From a virus: DNA of 64,000 nucleotides. Positions 1,586-53,492 of the stretch are shown piece by piece. The stretch lies in the IMG/VR virus record IMGVR_UViG_3300045303_000152, positions 1-64,000 of that record; one strand, given 5' to 3'. Made by a program: the position numbers and the translations under genes. Every line of letters begins with the position of its first letter. Within the stretch, counting starts at the first letter, position 1. A model generated the notes under the pieces. That model was not told the DNA's origin. It made no database searches and worked only from the letters and a program-made list of their open reading frames with translations.

Positions 1586-3583
1586 ATGCAAGAGTTCGCA
1601 TCAGCCAACGTCGTTACAGCAATGCAGCAGTTGCCAACCATTCTTCAACAAGTAATTCACAAAACACGATACGCTCGCTGGAATGACGAACTGGGCCGGC
1701 GCGAGAATTGGTACGAGACGGTCGCCCGCTACTGCAACTTCTTTCAAAAGCACATCAAGAACAAGTTCGATTGCGACCTGGGCACGATACACAACCCCAG
1801 CACGCCCCTTGGGCAAGCTTTCCACGCCATCTACACCCTTCAAGCCATGCCGAGCATGCGCTGCTTCATGTCAGCCGGCCCAGCTCTCGAGGCTGAGGCA
1901 TTCTTTGGTTTCAATTGTACCTATCGCGCCGTCAACGACGTGCGGGCCTTCGATGAGATCCTCTACGTCCTCATGTGCGCATGCGGCGTAGGCTTTTCAG
2001 TAGAGCGGCAATTCGTTGGCCAATTGCCAATGATACCCAAGCGGCTCAAGCCAAGCACAGAGGTAATCGTCGTCGAAGACAGCCGCGAAGGCTGGGCCAA
2101 GGCATTCGCGCGATTGATCGAGCGGCTGTACCAGGGCAACATTCCTAGCTGGGATATCAGCAAGCTTCGCCCAGCCGGCGCTCGGCTGAAGACTACCGGC
2201 GGGTATTCAAGTGGGCCTGCCCCGTTGGTCGATCTGTTCAAGTTCACCGTCCACACGTTCGAGCAAGCCAAGAGCCGCCGCCTCAACTCCCTCGAATGCC
2301 ACGACATAGTATGCAAGATTGGTGATATTGTCGTCGTGGGCGGCGTGCGCCGTGCAGCGCTGATCTCACTCAGCAACCCGAGCGATATGCGGTTGCGCCA
2401 CGCCAAGATGGGTGATTGGCATCACACGACCCCTTGGCGAGCTTTGGCCAACAACTCCGCATGCTATACCGAGCGACCGACGACTGGCGCCTTTATGAAC
2501 GAATGGCTCGCACTCTATGACAGCAAGTCGGGCGAGCGGGGTATCGTCAATCGCGAGGCGCTGATTAACAAGAGTAGGAATATTGGCCGCCGCGTGCATT
2601 GGGATGATTTTGCCGATACCGAGGCTGAGGATACCATCGACTTCGGCGTGAACCCCTGCTCAGAAATCATTTTGCGCTCGCAGCAAACCTGCAACCTGAG
2701 CGAAGGCATTGTACGCGCCAACGACACCATACAGACTTTAGTGTGGAAGGCCCAAATCGCATCTATGCTCGGCACGTGGCAGGCGACGTTGAGCGACTAC
2801 GGCTATGTAGGCCCCGACTGGAAAAAGAATGCTGAGGAGGAGCGGTTGCTGGGCGTAAGCCTTACCGGCATCATGGATAACCCGATACTCTCGCATCGGC
2901 ATCACCCGCACTTCGAGTCCACCCTTGTCGCCATGCGGGCAGCCGCCAGTAAGACCAACCACGATTGGAGTAGCAAGCTCGGCATCAACTCTGCCGCTGC
3001 CGTTACCTGCGTCAAGCCGAGCGGCACCGTCAGTCAGCTTGTCGATAGCAGCAGCGGCATCCACTCGCGCCATGCGCCCAAGTATATTCGCCGCGTCACG
3101 ATGGATAACCATAACCCGATCTGTCAGTTTATGAAGGATTGTGGCCTGCCCAACGAGCCAAGCGCTTACAAGCCACACGTGAACACGATATTCTCATTTC
3201 CTGTACGGGCGCCTAACACCAACGAGAGGTTATTCAACCGCTCGGCCATCGAGCAGTTGGAGCATTGGCATGCCATCAATAGTGTTTGGGCAGAACACAG
3301 TGTAAGCTGCACGATCACAGCGGGTGAGGATGAGTGGCCGCAAGTCGGTGGCTGGGTGTGGCAGCACTTCGATGAGATTTCGGGCGTGAGCTTTCTGCCC
3401 AAGTCGAACTCGGTTTACCGGCAGATGCCCTACGAGGCTTGCGACGAGGCTACTCTCAAAAAGCTCGAAGCCCAAATGCCATCAACCATTGACTGGGACA
3501 AGCTAAAGAGCTACGAAGCTGTGGACACGACCGAAAACAGCCAGCAGCTCGCCTGCACCGGCGACAAGTGTGAGATGATCTGA
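1586..3583 (+). CDS. nrdJ: ribonucleotide reductase class II (adenosylcobalamin-dependent, monomeric RTPR type)
   Basis: FNC, VVVGGVRRAALI, NPCSEI active-site motif, TCVKPSGTVSQL, C-terminal CxxxxC; no beta-subunit gene adjacent. Confidence 0.93.
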   Translation: MQEFASANVVTAMQQLPTILQQVIHKTRYARWNDELGRRENWYETVARYCNFFQKHIKNKFDCDLGTIHNPSTPLGQAFHAIYTLQAMPSMRCFMSAGPALEAEAFFGFNCTYRAVNDVRAFDEILYVLMCACGVGFSVERQFVGQLPMIPKRLKPSTEVIVVEDSREGWAKAFARLIERLYQGNIPSWDISKLRPAGARLKTTGGYSSGPAPLVDLFKFTVHTFEQAKSRRLNSLECHDIVCKIGDIVVVGGVRRAALISLSNPSDMRLRHAKMGDWHHTTPWRALANNSACYTERPTTGAFMNEWLALYDSKSGERGIVNREALINKSRNIGRRVHWDDFADTEAEDTIDFGVNPCSEIILRSQQTCNLSEGIVRANDTIQTLVWKAQIASMLGTWQATLSDYGYVGPDWKKNAEEERLLGVSLTGIMDNPILSHRHHPHFESTLVAMRAAASKTNHDWSSKLGINSAAAVTCVKPSGTVSQLVDSSSGIHSRHAPKYIRRVTMDNHNPICQFMKDCGLPNEPSAYKPHVNTIFSFPVRAPNTNERLFNRSAIEQLEHWHAINSVWAEHSVSCTITAGEDEWPQVGGWVWQHFDEISGVSFLPKSNSVYRQMPYEACDEATLKKLEAQMPSTIDWDKLKSYEAVDTTENSQQLACTGDKCEMI

Positions 3584-44180: not shown

Positions 44181-44276
44181 TCTTAGTACCTCGTCATGGC
44201 TCGTACCCCTTTTCGCTCTGAGCTAAAACTTGCTACCTGCGCCCCTTGCATACGCGCAAAGTGTGACGGCAGCAAG

Positions 44277-44807
44277 TCAGCTAAAGCGGGCGAACTCGCC
44301 GTGGAATTTTCAGGCAGCTTTGCGGTAGGCGAGCCATGCTTTGAATGGAGTGTTGAAGGTACCGAGCCGGTGTACTTTACGGTTTTTAGTGATTGTAGCT
44401 TTGTACTGATGTGGACTCACACAATGAACGCCTTTGTAGTCGCTAGATTTGGTCATTCGCTTTTTGTTGGCCATGTTTTGTGAGAACGTAGCTAGTCGTA
44501 AGTTGGTCCAACGATCATTAGCAGGCATGACGTCTCTGTGTTCTATTTGATAGCCGTGTGGGGGCCATTCACCTTTTACGATCACCCAAATTAGATGCGA
44601 TGCTTGGTATCGACCGTAGTCTAACCACACTTGCCTGTGCCCGTCGCTTACGATGGTGCCGGCAATGCTTCCAGCTCTTACACGTTGTCGGCTTTTGCGC
44701 CATGTGAGCACGCCCGTTTTTGGATCGTACTTCAATATGCTGCGAACTCGTTTTATGGAAGGTTTGCTCATTTGGGCCTGACGTTGGGGGTTGCGTAGCA
44801 TTAACAT
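44277..44807 (-). pseudogene. HNH-AP2 endonuclease with a premature TGA at 44310-44312
   Basis: YDPKTGVLTW, H.D....NDRWTNLRLAT..QN, YKGV, LGTF; the frame continues KFHGEFARFS after the stop. Confidence 0.75.
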
Positions 44808-45624
44808 ACGTTGTGCGATTTAGCTAGAACTCGGGTTCAAAATTGCACTGATGTTCTAATACCCCAATTTTGCCGTAAAAATTGGCGGATGTAAAATTTG
44901 CGAAAGGGCTTTTGACCCCTGGCTACTTAGATCTTTTACCGGATTTACCTTAGAAAATTATATCTACAGAATTTTGGGGCTGCCCCGCAAAGTTGTATCC
45001 GCATCTGTTGCTGGAAATCAACACAGTGAAAATTTCGAACAACCAGTCTGAGCCAGCGCTTGACATCCGTTGTATTTACATCCGAACGTCAATGCATAAA
45101 GCCTTTGATTTACTTGTCAATATGGCTCTTTTGCAACACGTTGCATTCTGCGATTGACGTGTCTTTTTGGCAACGATTTGTATTGCATCTACACTTCCGC
45201 TTCGGGCTGGCGTTGCCCAATTGTAAATAAAAGGCGACCTGTGATCCCCCGACAACACTTCAATTGAAAACCCGACATCGCACACAACTGCCATTGACTA
45301 TGGCAATCGCAACACTGATTTGCAATGCACCTACATCCCCAGCAGGTTCGCGACCGTAACTCCCTCGCAACACTGGCTCGCACAATCGCACAAACGCACG
45401 GCATTGCAACATCGAATGACTATTGACACGCACGAATCACTTCCAGGCTAGGGTACTAGCTAAAGGCTCGTTTGCTTGTCAGCGGCCACGCTAGGCGCAT
45501 TGGCTGCGTTGAGCCTTACAACTCTGTCATTGGCACAAGGTTTGCACTCGCGCACACATGCGCATGCCTGAGCAATGAGCGACCGATCACCCTGGCAAAC
45601 TCTAGTTGCAACAGCACCGCAACG

Positions 45625-45657
45625 TTAACGCTTTTTTAACTGATTGCGCCTTATACC
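45625..45657 (+). promoter_or_regulatory. CtrA-binding site TTAA-N7-TTAAC over the -35 region of a candidate promoter
   Basis: TTAACGCTTTTTTAAC 45625-45640; TATACC -10-like hexamer 11 nt downstream. Confidence 0.72.
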
Positions 45658-45997
45658 TTGGGCGTCGTCGGGTTGACGGCATGGGTACCTAGCGCCGTGA
45701 TGGCGTCAGTTGCCCCCCTATGAAACCCGATGCCCCAACCGGCGCCCATTCACTCGGCTTTTGCGCGCTGCTGCTGCGGGGTTTGCTACCAGCATCGCCA
45801 GTGCCCATCGTGGCCGCGTGCGAGGCATGGTCGGCCGCTAGTGCGGTCGGGCAATAGCACTCACGAGCTAGAGCACCAACGTCGCCCCATTGCTTACCGT
45901 CACACGCGCGCACCGTCGCTGCACCGTGACGCGGGCATGGCTACCGGCGCCCGTAACCCCTAGCACCAACAAACCCCAAACTTGCGAAACCCATGTT

Positions 45998-46087
45998 TCG
46001 CCTTCAATGCTCGGCACGCGCGCACCGTCGCCACAGCACGAGCATTGCGGCCGATACCATCGGGCATGATTGAACTAATCAGCATGC
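45998..46087 (+). repeat. multi-hairpin element, copy 1
   Basis: CGCC-T-T-CAATGCTCG/CGAGCATTG-C-GGC, then CGAT/ATCG-G, then a third hairpin and SD. Confidence 0.7.
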
Positions 46088-46115
46088 AAACCAACATCGA
46101 CGGGGGTTTTACACT

Positions 46116-46367
46116 ATGACGCGAATTGATCGGTACAAGCACAATCGCAACGTTGCCGAGCAATCGGCAACACTCACGGTCGGCTCAATTGTGCGCATCA
46201 CTAGCGAGCACAATTTTTACAACGGTCGGCTTGCAGTCATCATCGGGCACGTTCAATTCGCAATGAGCGAGCTTGATTGCTATTGGGTGCGTATCACTGA
46301 TACGCAAGTCACTTGCCTTGAACGGGCAAACGAACTGCGCTTGATTGATCGTCAGCACTCAAACTAA
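46116..46367 (+). CDS. hypothetical protein (SH3/KOW-like)
   Basis: GGGGGTTTTAC SD; VGSIVRI....FYNGRLAVI. Confidence 0.7.
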   Translation: MTRIDRYKHNRNVAEQSATLTVGSIVRITSEHNFYNGRLAVIIGHVQFAMSELDCYWVRITDTQVTCLERANELRLIDRQHSN

Positions 46368-46380
46368 GGGGTTTACACTG

Positions 46381-46800
46381 ATGGTTAAACGCCCATTCGA
46401 CGGCATCAACGTTGATGCCTTGCAAGCTTGGCTCGATAACTTCGAGCGAGCGCACCCGACGACTAGCGTTAAGCCGGCCTTGCCCACTAAGGCGCAAACG
46501 TTTGCCGAGCTTGATCGACTCGCAACACCAACAACCCTTGCGACCGTGAGCATTCGCACGCGCAAGGGTTATCGACCGCTGAAGGGTTACAGCTACCCAT
46601 TCGACAGTACACCGAATGATAGCGTCGTGCATACGCTGGTGCATTGTTGGTTCATTGATTACGTCGGCCCCGACAAGCCCGCGCGCTATGGCAATGTCGA
46701 AATTTCGGCCGACGAAACGGCGACTTTGCTTGCATGGGTAGCCGAGTGGCGCATTGCGCGTCGTCGCCCCATCAAACGCGTGGCTAACTGCTATCGCTAA
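46381..46800 (+). CDS. hypothetical protein
   Basis: GGGGTTTAC SD before ATG 46381. Confidence 0.7.
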   Translation: MVKRPFDGINVDALQAWLDNFERAHPTTSVKPALPTKAQTFAELDRLATPTTLATVSIRTRKGYRPLKGYSYPFDSTPNDSVVHTLVHCWFIDYVGPDKPARYGNVEISADETATLLAWVAEWRIARRRPIKRVANCYR

Positions 46801-46807
46801 CCTTGCC

Positions 46808-46891
46808 TCGCCTCACTTGCCTGCGATCACTCGCGGGCTTGTGGGCCGATGCAATCGCATCGGTTGCCGTTTCGGCTTAGGCCCACGGCGA
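46808..46891 (+). repeat. multi-hairpin element, copy 2
   Basis: CGCC-T-CAC..GCCTGCGA/TCGCGGGC..GTG-GGC, CGATGC/GCATCG-G, third hairpin. Confidence 0.75.
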
Positions 46892-46920
46892 AAACACTGC
46901 ACACTGAGGGGTTTACGATC

Positions 46921-47271
46921 ATGGCTCGTTCGATCAAGCATGCCAAGGCCAAGGGCGCGACCGTCACCAAGGCCAATGGCAAGGCCAAGTCGGCCAAGTC
47001 GCGCAAGGGCGCCAAGTCGCGCAAGGGCGCCAAGTCGCGCGTTGTCGCTCGCGAGTACCAGCCCAAGCCCGGTACCGGGCTCGAGTTCACCGACGACACG
47101 CGCATCACTGTGCTAGTGCGCGAAAACCCGAAGCGTGGCAAATCGGCCAAGCGCTTCGCAGGGTACCTCACCAAAAAGCCGAAAACCGTCGCGGCCGCGA
47201 TTGCCGCCGGCCTCACCCGCGCCGACATTCGCTGGGATGCCGGCAAGGGTTTCATCAAGCTGGGCAAGTAA
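46921..47271 (+). CDS. histone-like Lys/Ala-rich DNA-binding protein
   Basis: AKSRKG tandem repeats, C-terminal NPKR..S..RF..Y...DIRWD..KGFI domain; GGGGTTTAC SD. Confidence 0.75.
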   Translation: MARSIKHAKAKGATVTKANGKAKSAKSRKGAKSRKGAKSRVVAREYQPKPGTGLEFTDDTRITVLVRENPKRGKSAKRFAGYLTKKPKTVAAAIAAGLTRADIRWDAGKGFIKLGK

Positions 47272-47327
47272 GCTCGGCTAGTCGCGTGGTAGCGTAGCGC
47301 GTCAAACATCAGCCCACAAACTGCAAC

Positions 47328-47379
47328 GCCCACGCGCACACGGTTGCCAAGCTGGCGATTGTGTGGCGTGGGCTTTTTT
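47328..47379 (+). terminator. long-stem intrinsic terminator
   Basis: GCCCACGC...GCGTGGGC stem followed by TTTTTT. Confidence 0.75.
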
Positions 47380-47412
47380 GTTTGTACACTACCAATCATC
47401 ATGGGGGTTCAC

Positions 47413-47701
47413 ATGCTCGACAAGCTTTGCGCGTGGGCATACCGGCTGCCGTTTCGTTTGTGCGAGCCGGCTTACCTGCGAGCCGACTACTGGCGCGAGG
47501 TGCATCATGCATCGCGGCATACATAAGCTAATTCACCAATGGGTTGCTCGGCACAACGTTTGGGCAATCATAGCGTTTTGTGTACTGATGATTTACGCAC
47601 CTCGCGTGCTGCAAGTCGCGTGGCCGTTCATTGGCCAGCTAGCTTGCGCGACAATCGTAGCCTGCGCGGTCGCGGCAATCGTCGCACGCTTCACACGTTG
47701 A
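47413..47701 (+). CDS. two small ORFs (47413-47526; 47507-47701, two TM helices)
   Basis: GGGGGTTCAC and GAGGTG SDs. Confidence 0.55.
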
Positions 47702-47706
47702 ACGTT

Positions 47707-47892
47707 TCGCCTCACGGGCTCGCACGATGCGAGCTTGTGGGCCGACACGTGGCGCAATCATGTGTCGGGCTTGTTGCCGCGCGCCAAGTACGGCGCAACG
47801 CCTGATGAGGTTAGCCGGGTTCAACCCGTTACCCGCTAAACCTCATTGGCCGTTGCACTGAGCGGCGGGCGCGCTGGCGATTGTCAGCGTGC
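47707..47892 (+). repeat. multi-hairpin element, copies 3 and 4 in tandem
   Basis: copy 3: CGCC-T-CAC../..GTG-GGC, CGACACGTG/CATGTGTCG-G; copy 4: CGCC-T-GATGAGGTT/AACCTCATT-GGC, CGTTGC/GCGGCG-G. Confidence 0.75.
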
Positions 47893-47916
47893 AAACTAAA
47901 CTCAATGGGGGTTCAT

Positions 47917-48099
47917 GTGCGATACGCAATTGTTGACTTGCGCACCGGGGAAACCATGCGCGTTTGCGTCAGCATGCTCGCAGCGTTGCGTGAGGTGCGG
48001 CGCTTCAATGACCACGCGGCACAATGGCACGGCGCCTTGTCGCGCTACGCGATTGTGCCGACTTATGACGCGGCGAACCTTTGCGGGTTCGAACTGTGA
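47917..48099 (+). CDS. hypothetical protein (GTG start)
   Basis: GGGGGTTCAT SD; VRYAIVDLRTGE. Confidence 0.55.
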   Translation: MRYAIVDLRTGETMRVCVSMLAALREVRRFNDHAAQWHGALSRYAIVPTYDAANLCGFEL

Positions 48100-48181
48100 C
48101 GCCTGACAAGCTGCGAGCCTCGCACGTTCGCAGCTTGTCGGCCGCTACAGGCTAGCGGCGCCTCGCAATCGTGCGAGGTGC
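48100..48181 (+). repeat. multi-hairpin element, copy 5
   Basis: CGCC-T-GACAAGCTGCGA/TCGCAGCTTGTC-GGC, CGCTA/TAGCG-G, CGCCTCGCA/TGCGAGGTG. Confidence 0.75.
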
Positions 48182-48198
48182 AATCGACGGGGGTTCAC

Positions 48199-48426
48199 AT
48201 GATGCAATCGCATAGCGTCACTCAGTTGCGCCACGCCATGACTCACGGCCACTATCGCCGCATGCGCGCGGGTGACCTGTTGACGGGCTTGGTGCTCGGC
48301 ATGGCACTCGGCATGGCACTCGGCACAATCATCACGCTCGCATGCCTGCGACTTGATGAACTGACGCACAGCAGCGCCCGCGCGGTCGTGAGCGAGCGCA
48401 CGTGCATCGAGGCGATGTTACGCTAA
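48199..48426 (+). CDS. small membrane protein
   Basis: GGGGGTTCAC SD; LVLGMALGMALG helix. Confidence 0.6.
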   Translation: MMQSHSVTQLRHAMTHGHYRRMRAGDLLTGLVLGMALGMALGTIITLACLRLDELTHSSARAVVSERTCIEAMLR

Positions 48427-48435
48427 CCCGCTGCT

Positions 48436-48502
48436 GCCTGCTGCTACCCTCGCGAGGGTAGCAGTGGCCAGCAACGGCAGTTGTATCCGCAACACCGTTG
48501 CT
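48436..48502 (+). repeat. multi-hairpin element, copy 6 (divergent)
   Basis: GCC-T-GCTGCTACCCT/AGGGTAGCAGT-GGC, then AGCAACGG/CCGTTGCT. Confidence 0.6.
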
Positions 48503-48887
48503 TGTCGCACGCAAGCCGAGTTGTATATCAAAGTAGTTCATGTTGGAATTGCAACTTGTTGGTGTGTCAGCGGTCGCGGTCGCGAGGCTCGCGAGGGTAG
48601 CTGGCCACGGGCTTGCGAGGCGCGATGCCGCATATGGTCACAATGGGGCCTAGCGCGGTCGCTGGCTCGCATCGTGCGAGGTGCGGCACTGCCCTAGCCG
48701 CGCGCGGTCGCTGGCCACGGGCGACGCTGCTAGGGGGCTTGCGTGCGTTGCGTGACGTGCGGTCGCTGGCCAGCTCGGCAGCTTGCCCAGCTCGGGGCCG
48801 ACCGTGGCAGAGTTGTATAGTCAACAGAAGTCGAGTTTCCTCAACCTGAGGTTTCAATGCACATACATCTTCGCCTTGACTGTACAT

Positions 48888-48958
48888 CTGAACCGCGTTC
48901 ATCTTGTAGCTACATTCTGAACCGCGTTCATCTTGCATATGCATCTGATCAGCGTTCA
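48888..48958. repeat. three tandem units of about 29 bp with palindromic core TGAAC-CGC-GTTCA
   Basis: CTGAACCGCGTTCATCTTG exact at 48888 and 48917; degenerate third core at 48946. Confidence 0.8.
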
Positions 48959-49424
48959 GTTGCATGTCGAACGCAGGCAGGCAGGCGGCGGCTCCTTGTA
49001 ATCGGCCTCGGTCGCCTCGGTCGCGCCGAAGTCCAGCAAATCTGAGATTTGTCTTGGGAAAATCTTAAATCTGAAGCTCGAAGCTTTTTGCCTCGGTCGC
49101 TTTTTCAACAATTCAATTCGAAACTTTCACAAACGATCCTTATGACGCCGCCCCACGCGCGGGCGCGCGCTGCCATGTTGTTGACGATTTGCTCGGCGAT
49201 GCTGGGCAACTCCTTAGCAACAGATGCAGCTTTTGCTATAAGCTCAACGCTGAGCGATAGCACTAGCCTTGGGCTAGATCTACAGCATTGTTGCAAATCG
49301 TACATCGTATGATCGGCATGCGAGGTTCGAAAAACGGTTTTTCAATTTCGATTTGGATTTTCCAAGTTCAAAATTTCCAAGTGCCAGTGAGGAAGCAACC
49401 AGTGCAACAAGTGAGGAGCGTGCT

Positions 49425-51520
49425 ATGAAAGTGTCAGAAGCAGGCGTGCTGACATTTCAGGGGGTCAGCTTCAATTACACCCTGAGGAAGCCAGAGCACT
49501 ATCGCAGTGCGATGTTTCAATACTGCAATCGCAACGCCTTCAAGGTTGAAGATAGCAGAATATGGGGCATCGAGCTGGAACATGCAATCGAGTGCTTACG
49601 CAAGTACGCGCAACTGAAGCTGCCCGACATCATCGCCGATCAAGAGGCGATGTTTCGAGCTCTCGGCTTCAACGTAACGTGGGGCACTAACAGCAAGGCC
49701 CAACACGTCATCATCATTCACTAAGGAGAAAGGATCATGCCCGCCCCGTTAGGCAAAACGATCAGGCTCGAAACCTACAAGAAGAATGTGTACCGATGCG
49801 TAACGAACATTCGGTATCAAGAAACCCAACTGCATGAGCTAACGATGCAGTTGGCCGGAACTACAAACCTGTACCGTCAGTCGAAGCTGCGCAAGCTTAT
49901 CAAGAATAAGCACTTCACCATCGCACGCTGGCGTGACAAGTTAAAGTTCGAGAATGCTCGCGAGATAGAACCTGAGCCTAGACCAACACGAGTACGCTAA
50001 CCTGCACTGCACAGTCTGACACTCAATGGAGCATGACTATGCCTATCAGCCGAAAGACCAACCTGCCGCCCACCAAGCCCAAGGTAAAGGTAGAAGAAGC
50101 TGCGCCTACCCCAAGCGTCGAGTACAAGCCTTCTACAACCAAATACCTGTTCACGCCCAAGCATCACCGCAAGCTCGCTGAGTTCTGCGCTGCTCATATC
50201 AAGAAGGTTGAGCAGCGTGAGCGTGAGCAAGCATGGCAAATGGCCTATGATATGGGCGAGATGTTACAAGCCGACCATCGCGAGCACTTCAAGCCAACTG
50301 AGTTCTTCGCGCTGGTACATCAGCTAGTAGACCAGAAGTAAACTGCACACACTGCACAACTAACAAATGGAGCACTACTATGCCTAGGTTCGAATACATG
50401 AAGCTCAATCTTAGTCATGAAGATCGTGACGGCGATGATGTGGATAGCTTGAACTACTACGGCGAGCAGGGTTGGCAAGTCATCGCCGTGCAAGTGAACG
50501 GCATGGCATATCTGATGCGGGCTGTAGAAGAAACTACTAGTGCAACCGTCGACACGCCACCTGCAAGCCCGCGTGGTGTGCTGACGCTCGACGTAACATC
50601 CTTCGACCGCAAGGCTGATGAGACAATGTTGCGCGAGCTACACATACTGCGCAAACTGGCTACACAGGAAATAACGAAGTTGTCAGAGTTTGTTGAGGTG
50701 GTTCAATATCTGGAACCGACCGTCGAGTATGCGTCGGTAGTAGCGCTGCTCGACAGGCTCGAGAACGTCGGCGTGGTTACGCGGCCCCAGAAGGGCAAAT
50801 ATACGGCAGGCCCGAATGCACAGCAATATATGCTGCTACTTATTCAAACGCTGACGGAACGGAAAGTAGAAATACCCAATGGGGTTCACAAGAAGTAAGC
50901 AGCGCCTAAACCAAACCAGCTAATGAGGGGGAATATCAAATGCCCGCGACTGACAACGCCTTGATGGCAAAGCCTCGTAATGTGGATGTTACCGATGCAC
51001 GCACCCCGATGTGGATTGTACGCAAGATCGTACATCGCTTGGTGCTCGACTTCGGCAGCATCTACGTGGTTGATCAGATACAAGTGGCGATGGTTGGCAA
51101 GGCGTATGGGTTTATGGTCAGTTTCGAACTGACGCCCCAATCACCAAACGTGGAGTTGATGTTCAACGTGAGAATTGCGTACTTCGACTATGTTGGGGAG
51201 ATCAAGTGGTGTTGCCTTACTACCAGAAATGAGGTAACTGGGAGGTGGCAGTAATGTCAACACAATACGCCGTCATGCGGCGGAGGGAAGTGAATATGTG
51301 GTATGTTGAGATGTGCAATGGCAAACGTCACGGCCCATTCGAAAGCTATGAAGATGCTAACCAAATGGCTAGCGACGACGTAGCCAGAATATACCGGGTT
51401 CACAGCGTATCTCATCTACTGGCCTATGACAGAGCCATGCGCGAGCGGCGTGGCAAGCTGTCGCCCATAACGCTGCCAACGCCAGATCACCCGGCATTGC
51501 GGCGCCTGCTTGACGAGTAG
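49425..51520 (+). CDS. run of small hypothetical genes (49425-49724, 49737-50000, 50033-50341, 50380-50898, 50940-51254, 51254-51520)
   Basis: tightly packed with GGAG SDs; 50380-50898 has a DUF4177-like N-terminus and a winged-helix-like C-terminus. Confidence 0.65.
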
Positions 51521-52323: not shown

Positions 52324-52530
52324 ATGAGCGAGTCTGAAGCAGTTGCGTGGGTAGCACTGGGCTGGTGCTACTTCTGGGGAGCCATAGTTTCATTTGTACT
52401 GGTCTATATGCTTCGTGCTCCTGATCCAACAATAAATAGGTGGATTGTGCTGGTAACTTTCTCATGGCCAGTAACAATGCCTTGGATGATCGTTGATGCA
52501 CTCGCCAACATGGTGAAGGACAAGAAATGA
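52324..52530 (+). CDS. small membrane protein
   Basis: two TM helices; similar to 53730..53984 (ALGW.YFWG, WPV..P). Confidence 0.65.
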   Translation: MSESEAVAWVALGWCYFWGAIVSFVLVYMLRAPDPTINRWIVLVTFSWPVTMPWMIVDALANMVKDKK

Positions 52531-53492
52531 AAGCGCGCACATTCGACAAGGCCGATGTGTACGAGCGCATAACTGCTCAGATTATTAAGGACGTTGAGGC
52601 TGGGACGATACCCTGGCTGATACCCTGGTCACATTCTAAAGCCACTCAGGCTCGAGATTTGACCTTGCAAGACGTGTGGCCGGCTAACGCAATCACCGGC
52701 CACCTGTACAACGGCGCAAACGTGTTTCAATGCTGGATGCATCAGTCAAGGCTGAAGGCAGAAGGGCCACCGCTGTTCTTAACCTTCAAGCAAGCGAAGG
52801 CAGCCGGCGGCTACGTGCGCAAAGGAGAGCAGAGCATCATCGTCATCGGCTTCAACAGTGGCTTGAAGAAAGTCGAGCAGGACGATGGTACGACCAAAAC
52901 CAAAAAGACTTTCTATGCGTTCGGCCACTTCGTATTTCACATCAGCCAATGTGAGAATGTGAAGCTGCCAAAGCGCAAGCCCATAGAGCGACCCGTGGGC
53001 CTCGACGATGACAAGGCATGGCAGGCGTTCATCAAAGCTACCGGAGCAGACATTCGCCACGGTGGCACGAGTGCTCACTACAAGCCCATCGCAGACTACA
53101 TACAAATGCCGACGGCCAAGGCGTTCAAGACTAAGGATGATTACAAGGCTGTCGAGTTGCACGAGTTGACACACTGGACAAGCCACAAGACTAGGTGCGA
53201 CAGGCCAATCATGCACATGTTCCAAAGCGAGGGCTACGCAAAGGAGGAGCTGATTGCCGAGCTGGGCAGTGCATTTCTATGTGCCAAGCTGGGCGTCGTG
53301 CAAAAGACTGTGCGTCACGCCGACTATGTTGGCGATTGGCTGAAAGTGCTCAAGAACGACAAGCGCGCCATCGTGCGCGCTGCGTCGCAGGCAATGAAGG
53401 CCACAACCTTCATTGAGACGCTGGTAGGTGATGCGTTGAAACCAAAAGTGAAGCGCAAGCGTTTGAAACCATCGAAAGGAAAAAGGCGATGA
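52527..53492 (+). CDS. ardC: ArdC-family antirestriction protein (ssDNA-binding plus zincin-like domain)
   Basis: YERIT..II..VEAG..PW..PW, N..TG..Y.G.N, TFKQA...GG.VRKGE, HELTHWT, YAKEELIAELGSAFLCA. Confidence 0.92.
   Translation: MKARTFDKADVYERITAQIIKDVEAGTIPWLIPWSHSKATQARDLTLQDVWPANAITGHLYNGANVFQCWMHQSRLKAEGPPLFLTFKQAKAAGGYVRKGEQSIIVIGFNSGLKKVEQDDGTTKTKKTFYAFGHFVFHISQCENVKLPKRKPIERPVGLDDDKAWQAFIKATGADIRHGGTSAHYKPIADYIQMPTAKAFKTKDDYKAVELHELTHWTSHKTRCDRPIMHMFQSEGYAKEELIAELGSAFLCAKLGVVQKTVRHADYVGDWLKVLKNDKRAIVRAASQAMKATTFIETLVGDALKPKVKRKRLKPSKGKRR

Follow-up and report, generated by a model that had tools for sequence, protein, structure and literature searches.

The gaps between a few short genes of a soil phage are filled with sequences that share a folded shape while their stems differ, which raises the question of what such sequences do for the genes around them. 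The locus lies in the first 64 kb (hereafter the window, meaning this whole 64-kb stretch) of the 109,752-base IMG/VR virus record IMGVR_UViG_3300045303_000152, which is estimated to be 85% complete. A first-pass annotation of the window had described six covarying multi-hairpin elements here, and had offered RNA processing, put-like antitermination or translational control, and recombination between gene cassettes as explanations, in that order of preference. We found that these six elements, which we call E1 to E6, form structures that are under selection, that they are biased to one strand and that they hold a constant position between genes. The interpretation we favour, with belief and doubt about evenly balanced, is that they serve between the cistrons of an early polycistronic messenger RNA (mRNA) for processing, stabilisation or insulation.

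Conserved three-helix structures between genes

All six copies were confirmed on the + strand by reading and folding. All follow a common plan of (C/T)GCC, an unpaired T, a variable stem 1 and GGCC; in E1 to E5 this is followed by G, stem 2, CGG, one linker base and a 3′ hairpin domain. Stem 1 has 9-14 uninterrupted pairs, variable in their distal parts, and a closing GGC, for a total of ~14-20 bp. Stem 2 directly abuts stem 1 and is closed by CG/CG or, alternatively, by CCG/CGG sharing the last C of GGC. The 3′ hairpin domain is a single stem 3 in E1, E2, E4 and E5, and two small hairpins in E3. As the first-pass annotation had it, four copies (E1, E2, E4 and E5) end in a Shine-Dalgarno (SD) sequence and a start codon, here the ribosome site GGGG(G)TT and the start, both downstream of an A/C-rich spacer of 8-16 nt, and four copies (E2, E3, E5 and E6) begin within 10 nt of a stop codon, at 8, 6, 0 and 8 nt past it, respectively.

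With coordinates running from (C/T)GCC to the end of the last hairpin, E1 (45999..46087, + strand) lies 5′ of the first gene; its CGCC is followed by a TT/C internal loop and by stem 1, whose apical loop of 24 nt is conserved, after which come GGCCG, stem 2, CGG, G and stem 3. E2 (46809..46891, +) follows the stop codon at 46798-46800. E3 (47708..47796, +) follows the stop codon at 47699-47701, is devoid of a ribosome site and runs straight into E4 (47799..47892, +), with which it forms a tandem; E4 contains six G.U pairs, and its + strand fold is 15 kcal/mol more stable than its − strand fold. E5 (48100..48181, +) starts immediately past the stop codon at 48097-48099. E6 (48435..48502, +), located past the stop codon at 48424-48426, opens with TGCC instead of CGCC and has no gene 3′ of it; after GGCC it departs from the plan with a different long hairpin, the divergence that had been reported for the sixth copy. 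A possible degenerate seventh copy (GCC, T, AGCG...CGCT, GGCCA) at 48648..48715 on the + strand matches the descriptor given below, and its minimum free energy (MFE) fold is ambiguous. Every stem listed in the annotation pairs as claimed. Two of its generalisations have to be narrowed: the unpaired T is shared by the other copies but not by E1, which has a 2x1 internal loop with TT opposite C, and the succession of CGCC...GGC, a second stem CG...CG and a third hairpin holds for the most part, except that E6 opens TGCC and E3 ends in two small hairpins.

We examined whether such structures exceed the chance expectation using a Python descriptor (GCC and an unpaired base (T), a hairpin of MFE <= -12 kcal/mol, GGCC, a further hairpin) in place of a covariance model, because MAFFT misaligns the variable stems. 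On both strands of the 109,752-base record, the matches are confined to the + strand at 46810-48715. The same descriptor found 36 matches in 2.07 Mb of unrelated GC-rich viral loci, and therefore ~0.05 would be expected in 2.7 kb. Furthermore, a GC-corrected sliding fold of the whole genome places 16 of the 40 most structured 90-nt + strand segments in 46.8-48.7 kb, 3 of which belong to a terminator; the remaining strongly structured sites of the genome are ordinary terminators composed of a hairpin and a T run. Three helices are predicted in every copy, with shuffle z-scores of -2.1 to -4.4.

Relatives of the phage were reached via homologues of the protein of gene 3, the sole operon protein with homologues, of which there are only five among 5.8 billion proteins. 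They comprise one 71-kb contig (L002, L119 and L122 being the same contig), a 3.5-kb contig (L121) and a 1-kb contig (L120), all from soil or rhizosphere metagenomes and with 76-94% DNA identity to the window. The orthologous elements are all present in these relatives, and the covariation statistics accordingly rest on 3-4 sequences per element, from close relatives only.

Between paralogues, 52 of the 54 cells over the first nine positions of stem 1 are standard pairs, and every one of these positions shows 2-5 pair types. In the orthologue sets, RNAalifold identified eight double-sided changes with pairing kept (1 in E1, 4 in E2, 1 in E4 and 2 in E5), together with several one-sided shifts between G-C, G-U and A-U. 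The compensatory pair of E1 is a C-G to U-A change in L121. E2 has its four pairs changed on both sides across four phages, and its stem 3 is UGCCGU/ACGGCG in the window, compared to CAACGU/ACGUUG in the relatives; this level of E2 covariation was reached by only 4 of 500 column shuffles, and sliding the partners cut the pairing from 99% to ~32%. E3 is kept in L119 and L121 with a 2-nt loop deletion, and stems 2 and 3 of E4 differ in the relatives with pairing largely retained. Stem 1 of E5 is GACAAGC/GCUUGUC in the window, GAUAGGC/GCUUGUC with two G.U pairs in L121 and GAUAGGC/GCCUAUC in L119, so that the path window/L121/L119 is C-G / U.G / U-A at one pair and A-U / G.U / G-C at another, which reads as a textbook route via wobble intermediates. 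For E6, stem 1 is of wholly different sequence in L119, L121 and two soil runs and is still a near-perfect hairpin between almost unchanged flanks. The loop indels of 1-2 nt found in relatives exclude an overlapping or hidden reading frame. Collectively, the paralogues and the compensatory changes of three relatives strongly support the earlier proposal that structure rather than sequence is conserved, and provide a clean natural case of compensatory RNA evolution, with G.U intermediates caught between very close relatives.

Judged by the sequences searched, this three-hairpin family is seen so far in four closely related soil phages only. A phage collection searched by DNA for wider relatives gave no match, and the TerL search gave no close match in viral contigs, the protein being at most 46% identical to its matches, in Pseudanabaena and Rhizobium phages. 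Of the sequencing runs listed for the stretch, none was of RNA, and reads from four soil or rhizosphere DNA runs yielded variants of the relatives only. Likewise, Rfam 15 has no match at gathering thresholds in the 64-kb window, in agreement with the annotation, which had not recognised the family. In a permissive Rfam search of 45400-49400, the best match is osmY RNA (22.5 bits against a threshold of 46.9, E 0.049); it covers 47849-47907, that is stems 2-3 of E4, and is most likely due to chance.

Functions in a putative early messenger

The elements most likely act as RNA, in mRNA, a reading that we base on the G.U pairs (51 of 617 predicted pairs), the strand bias of the fold (the + strand being favoured in 17 of 20 copies, with a difference of up to 15 kcal/mol), the uniform orientation with respect to the genes and the fixed position relative to stop codon and ribosome site.

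The structural genes, among them portal and terminase, occupy the − strand up to ~41 kb, with small + strand genes beyond. E1 is preceded by a 1.2-kb non-coding leader (44808..45998, +) with no credible gene in the ~1.3 kb up to the first small gene at 46116, and with no significant structure at 45870-45998 of the window. At 45060-45460 of the window, the leader has a number of −35-like motifs of the TTGAC type, which L121 conserves and which we presume to be early promoters. From the gene layout, this leader with its TTGAC motifs and an anti-restriction gene downstream (52527-53492), we infer that 45-48.5 kb is the start of an early, host-transcribed operon.

In the mechanism that we favour, host RNA polymerase would transcribe one early polycistron from promoters in the 1.2-kb leader. 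Each intercistronic gap of this transcript would be filled by three abutting hairpins, namely stem 1 closed by GCC/GGC with its unpaired U, stem 2 closed by (C)CG/CG(G) and a third hairpin, followed by the unstructured A/C-rich spacer, GGGG(G)UU as the ribosome site and the start codon. Cleavage within or beside the element would be the work of an endonuclease, the obvious candidate being the double-strand-specific host RNase III, with the bulged stem 1 as its substrate, either alone or in a stack with stem 2. The upstream message would thereby acquire stem 1 as a cap at its 3′ end, and the downstream message would begin with stems 2-3 as a 5′ cap that holds upstream sequence away from its ribosome site. 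Transcription into a single early message, its cutting, the nuclease responsible and any resulting stabilisation are inferred. Processing is supported by the location of the elements, all on the coding strand and each confined to the space from a stop codon to a ribosome site or to the element that follows, and by a layout in which presumed promoters come first, an element precedes the opening gene, further elements separate the genes and a last one closes the series. Of the explanations offered by the annotation, RNA processing or stabilisation thus best accounts for where the elements lie, how they are oriented, their strand asymmetry and the G.U intermediates; its self-cleaving variant is unlikely, because almost all conserved bases lie in closing base pairs.

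Several points weigh against such processing modules. T7-type RNase III signals are one helix of about two turns, ~20-22 bp, often with an internal loop, ~22 bp being ideal for the enzyme (PMC3867540), and stem 1 alone, with its ~14-20 bp, reaches this ideal only if stacked on stem 2. The invariant CGCC-U / GGCC(G) / CGG points to a sequence-specific reader, unlike RNase III, although common descent together with strong closing pairs could be an alternative source of these invariant bases. E3 has no downstream gene, and the gene at 47413, the next after the terminator described below, has no element in front of it. No RNase III gene was found in the phage record. Furthermore, three E1 orthologues fold slightly better on the − strand, and a G.T-tolerant hairpin of + strand single-stranded DNA (ssDNA) is the sole DNA form still compatible with the data. 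A search for a T7-type RNA polymerase gave no match, with control genomes silent too, and is therefore uninformative.

Among the alternatives, the one that survives best, while still improbable, concerns the polymerase itself. An intrinsic terminator (GC stem and T run) at 47328..47384 on the + strand lies mid-operon, 3′ of gene 3, and is kept in L119, L120 and L121 with a compensatory A-U to G-C change; the distal genes need read-through. Nascent hairpins may provide it by acting on RNA polymerase, as in put-like antitermination or pausing, or by denying Rho a loading site. This idea is favoured by the presence of such a strong and conserved terminator inside the array with E1 and E2 upstream of it, by the lack of a promoter-like site between the terminator and the next gene in a consensus scan, and by the near absence of unpaired RNA between genes. 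The elements also recall put of phage HK022, in which, as reportedly described by King et al. in 1996, adjacent stem-loops are separated by 0-1 nt. However, six copies are present, four of them 3′ of the terminator, and two put sites per genome suffice because the put-type modification persists. The elements have three hairpins, not two, their freely varying loops and stems leave few conserved unpaired bases for contact with polymerase, and partial termination alone would account for the terminator. Put-like antitermination, as the annotation had proposed it, thus gains a mid-operon terminator in its favour and has six three-hairpin copies, unlike put, against it.

We consider it marginally less probable that the hairpins control translation, by setting the access to GGGG(G)UU via anti-SD pairing, coupling to the stop codon or a ribosome standby platform. 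Stem 1 starts 0-8 nt past the stop codon, and a terminating ribosome must therefore open its base. In partition-function folds, the SD of E1 and E2 pairs with an upstream C-rich stretch (p>0.9), and the A/C-rich spacer before the SD is unpaired in most copies. Nevertheless, the SD/anti-SD duplex is not above that of random 39-nt windows of the same genome (control fractions 0.05-0.87), the pairing partners vary between copies and relatives, and neither E3 nor E6 has a gene that could be regulated. For E1 and E2, a predicted long-range anti-SD/SD helix around the whole element was not adopted, being no better than the random-window controls.

A shade less probable again is a primary role in DNA, with the elements serving as recombination linkers. 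In the form of short conserved repeats, or of hairpins with an extrahelical T in + strand ssDNA, they would be the places where the phage gains, loses or exchanges small early genes, in the manner of the promoter-early stem-loops (PeSL) of T4-type phages or of integron attC sites. Traces of exchange are found at the elements. L119 holds a further element copy (3041-3096) which, together with a 59-aa gene (3041-3298 in all), is bracketed by the same 16-nt element 5′ edge. The replacement that brought the window-specific gene 2 stops 6 nt short of E2, stem 1 of E2 in L119 is identical to window E3 at 39 of 39 positions, the 3′ arm of window E6 matches a repeat at 48589-48611, 150 nt downstream, and the E3-E4 tandem resembles an emptied cassette; in addition, ssDNA tolerates G.T pairs. 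A comparison of the reading frames between elements in the relatives, as suggested with the annotation, found the gene order to be strictly collinear in three relatives, with differences that include one cassette indel and two replacements inside genes. The relatives lack a separate gene 2 and have gene 1 extended by a different C-terminus (window 46340-46803, L119 1884-2072); the N-terminus of gene 1 differs too, with a breakpoint 4 nt past E1, and the leader immediately 5′ of E1 is replaced.

The elements do take part in recombination, because exchange between copies has occurred, but nothing in these sequences indicates a mechanism dedicated to it. No tyrosine (PF00589) or serine recombinase or resolvase was found in the 109.7-kb record (85% complete), nor a tyrosine recombinase in the 71-kb record of the relative (49% complete). 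RYYYAAC/GTTRRRY core sites are absent from the elements, whose conserved ends are (C/T)GCC-T and GGCC(G/A) in 20 of 20 copies, and so are promoter hexamers, a defining part of PeSL, with the caveat that the promoter rules of the host may differ. About half of the homology breakpoints fall inside genes, and the share near elements is close to the elements' share of the sequence. Finally, compensatory change maintains all three helices, which simple homology patches would not need. The attC-like form of the annotation's third explanation accordingly fails, on the recombinase search, the missing R-box core sites and the collinear order; of its PeSL-like form, the promoter part is lost, and a by-product role has some support in the cassette indel with 16-nt edges and the inter-copy exchange.

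A combination of both roles is in our view still more doubtful. In RNA, the elements would insulate cistrons and be read by an endoribonuclease specific for the junctions, with CGCC-U / GGCCG and not helix length as its recognition feature, and in DNA they would be recombinase-free joints swapping early anti-host genes; stems would be diversified via inter-copy exchange and palindrome-correcting template switches, limiting deletion between neighbours. Least probable by a wide distance is a cut at the GGC/CG junction made by the RNA itself, as a ribozyme, or by an endoribonuclease dedicated to such hairpin junctions. The invariant bases at helix junctions (CGCC-U, GGCCG, CGG) in 20 of 20 copies and the lack of a match to known RNA families could speak for it; against it stand the location of nearly all invariant bases in Watson-Crick closing pairs, leaving one unpaired U and a variable linker base for an active site, the failure of any known ribozyme model to score, and the lack of an identified candidate nuclease gene, neighbouring genes being without family matches.

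More familiar identities were rejected. E4 opens with CUGAUGAG, which resembles the core of a hammerhead ribozyme; this is absent from the other copies and the relatives, and Rfam reports no ribozyme. Promoters are not supported, as no −35/−10 hexamers are found in the elements under the sigma-70 consensus, which may not be that of the host. Terminators are not supported either, as the hairpins, although stable, are devoid of a T run or U-tract, unlike the genome's own terminators. Lastly, repetitive extragenic palindromes and bacterial interspersed mosaic elements (REP/BIME) do not fit, since stem sequences differ between copies and all copies are within 2.7 kb, not dispersed.

Genes and sequence composition around the array

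The genes of the operon are small. Gene 1 (46116-46367, 83 aa) has the ribosome site GGGGGTTT and an ATG (46102..46118, +). Gene 2 (46381-46800, +, 139 aa) is found in the window and one soil run only, and a search with its protein for wider relatives gave no match. Gene 3 (46921-47271, 116 aa) has the ribosome site GGGGTTT and an ATG (46908..46923, +). Its product is rich in Lys and Ala, resembles histone H1, carries a conserved domain at its C-terminus (YQPKPGTGLE ... RWDAG) and has no match in Pfam, PHROG or NCBIfam; a search with its alignment found nothing new in bacterial genomes or viral contigs. Gene 6 (47917-48099, 60 aa) has the ribosome site GGGGGTT and a GTG (47907..47919, +), and its frame was chosen because the differences between the window and L119 are mostly third-position synonymous in that frame. 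Gene 7 (48199-48426, 75 aa), with GGGGGTT and an ATG (48189..48201, +), encodes a membrane-like protein. Upstream of the leader, a free-standing HNH endonuclease gene (44310-44807, −; PHROG 99, E 9e-49) is missing from the relative L002, in which the homology jumps from 44220 to 44882 of the window. A weak hint of a protein kinase at 50380-50898, which would have paralleled the T7 0.7 kinase, was dropped as follow-up searches gave no support.

The composition of the region is unusual. The trinucleotides GGA, AGA, TCC and TCT are nearly missing from 45870-48486, with 3 occurrences in ~2.6 kb compared to 15-20 per 500 nt elsewhere, and the longest gaps between them genome-wide (1365, 714 and 537 nt) are all within this interval. 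Because these trinucleotides are avoided here, the ribosome sites are GGGG(G)TT, and not of the GGAG type used in the rest of the genome. The array thus sits in a leader region that combines a near-absence of RGA/TCY with poly-G ribosome sites, and insight into one of these unusual features may help to account for another.

A motif of 16-24 nt, ACGCGCGCACCGTCGC..., is present in two copies 112 nt apart, at 45904-45922 and 46015-46034 in the window and at 1485-1500 and 1611-1626 in L119. One copy makes up the loop at the tip of stem 1 in E1, the second the loop of a leader hairpin. The motif is kept in relatives despite the replaced leader around it, and may be a protein-binding site. A scan with the 16-nt loop motif for wider relatives was non-specific.

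Downstream of E6, 48540-49350 forms a repeat-rich non-coding boundary. It contains three copies of GGTCGCTGG(C/T)C(A) with a spacing of 49-55 nt (48652, 48701 and 48756), a 29-nt tandem repeat at 48887/48916 and the possible degenerate seventh copy (48648-48715). In addition, AGTTGTAT occurs at 48479, 48519 and 48811, and at 44991.

Comparison with known phage and cassette elements

The elements share features with several known systems. Like the put sites of HK022, they are formed by adjacent stem-loops with almost no linker, would be cis-acting in early phage transcripts and are conserved by covariation. Put, however, has two stem-loops and two sites per genome located just 3′ of early promoters, compared to three hairpins and six intergenic sites here. 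With attC, the elements have in common imperfect, variable hairpins with conserved ends, an unpaired T, a single orientation and a position bounding short genes. They differ from attC in that no integrase was found and R''/R' core sites are missing, in that they lie upstream of a ribosome site and do not close a promoterless cassette, and in having two further conserved hairpins after stem 1 as well as a collinear gene order.

Early genes of the Bacillus phages SP82 and SPO1, whose DNA contains 5-hydroxymethyluracil, provide another precedent. Panganiban and Whiteley are said to have described in 1983 RNase III sites that are repeated, partly sequence-conserved hairpins between early genes, as here. 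The SP82 sites are reportedly single hairpins with strong sequence conservation, to which the elements have no sequence or architectural similarity.

PeSL are likewise composite intergenic motifs of ~100 nt that end in a Shine-Dalgarno sequence and a start codon and flank small ORFan early genes; close relatives differ by indels at these motifs, and no dedicated recombinase is known (PMC2839356, PMC4122927). A PeSL consists, however, of a strong sigma-70 promoter and one stem-loop terminator (PMC2839356), whereas the elements have neither promoter hexamers nor a U-tract, fold into three hairpins and have stems that are diversified, not conserved.

The closest parallel in organisation is the early region of T7. 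Its early precursor carries five RNase III signals, where a bulge or loop restricts cutting to one strand, and the hairpin that remains stabilises the 3′ end (PMC3867540). As with R0.3, R0.5, R1, R1.1 and R1.3, the array consists of structured intercistronic elements in a putative host-transcribed early polycistron with clustered promoters; one precedes the first gene, one follows the last and the rest separate genes. Both contain bulged or looped helices, in both the paralogues are conserved in structure, and in both hairpin-capped monocistronic mRNAs are expected. The T7 signals are single two-tier hairpins of about two helical turns with an internal loop, whereas the elements are three abutting hairpins with invariant junction bases and one unpaired U; furthermore, cleavage is demonstrated in T7 and is a proposal for the elements. 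By this analogy, the elements resemble the T7 RNase III sites in logic, not in architecture. Their compact, modular ~85-nt design in six non-identical versions per operon is the property wanted in non-recombining synthetic intercistronic insulators. If they are indeed processing or insulating modules, the cutting of an early polycistron into hairpin-capped messages would extend from T7 to unrelated large soil phages, where a T7-like strategy would use a different, three-hairpin part with defined junction bases.

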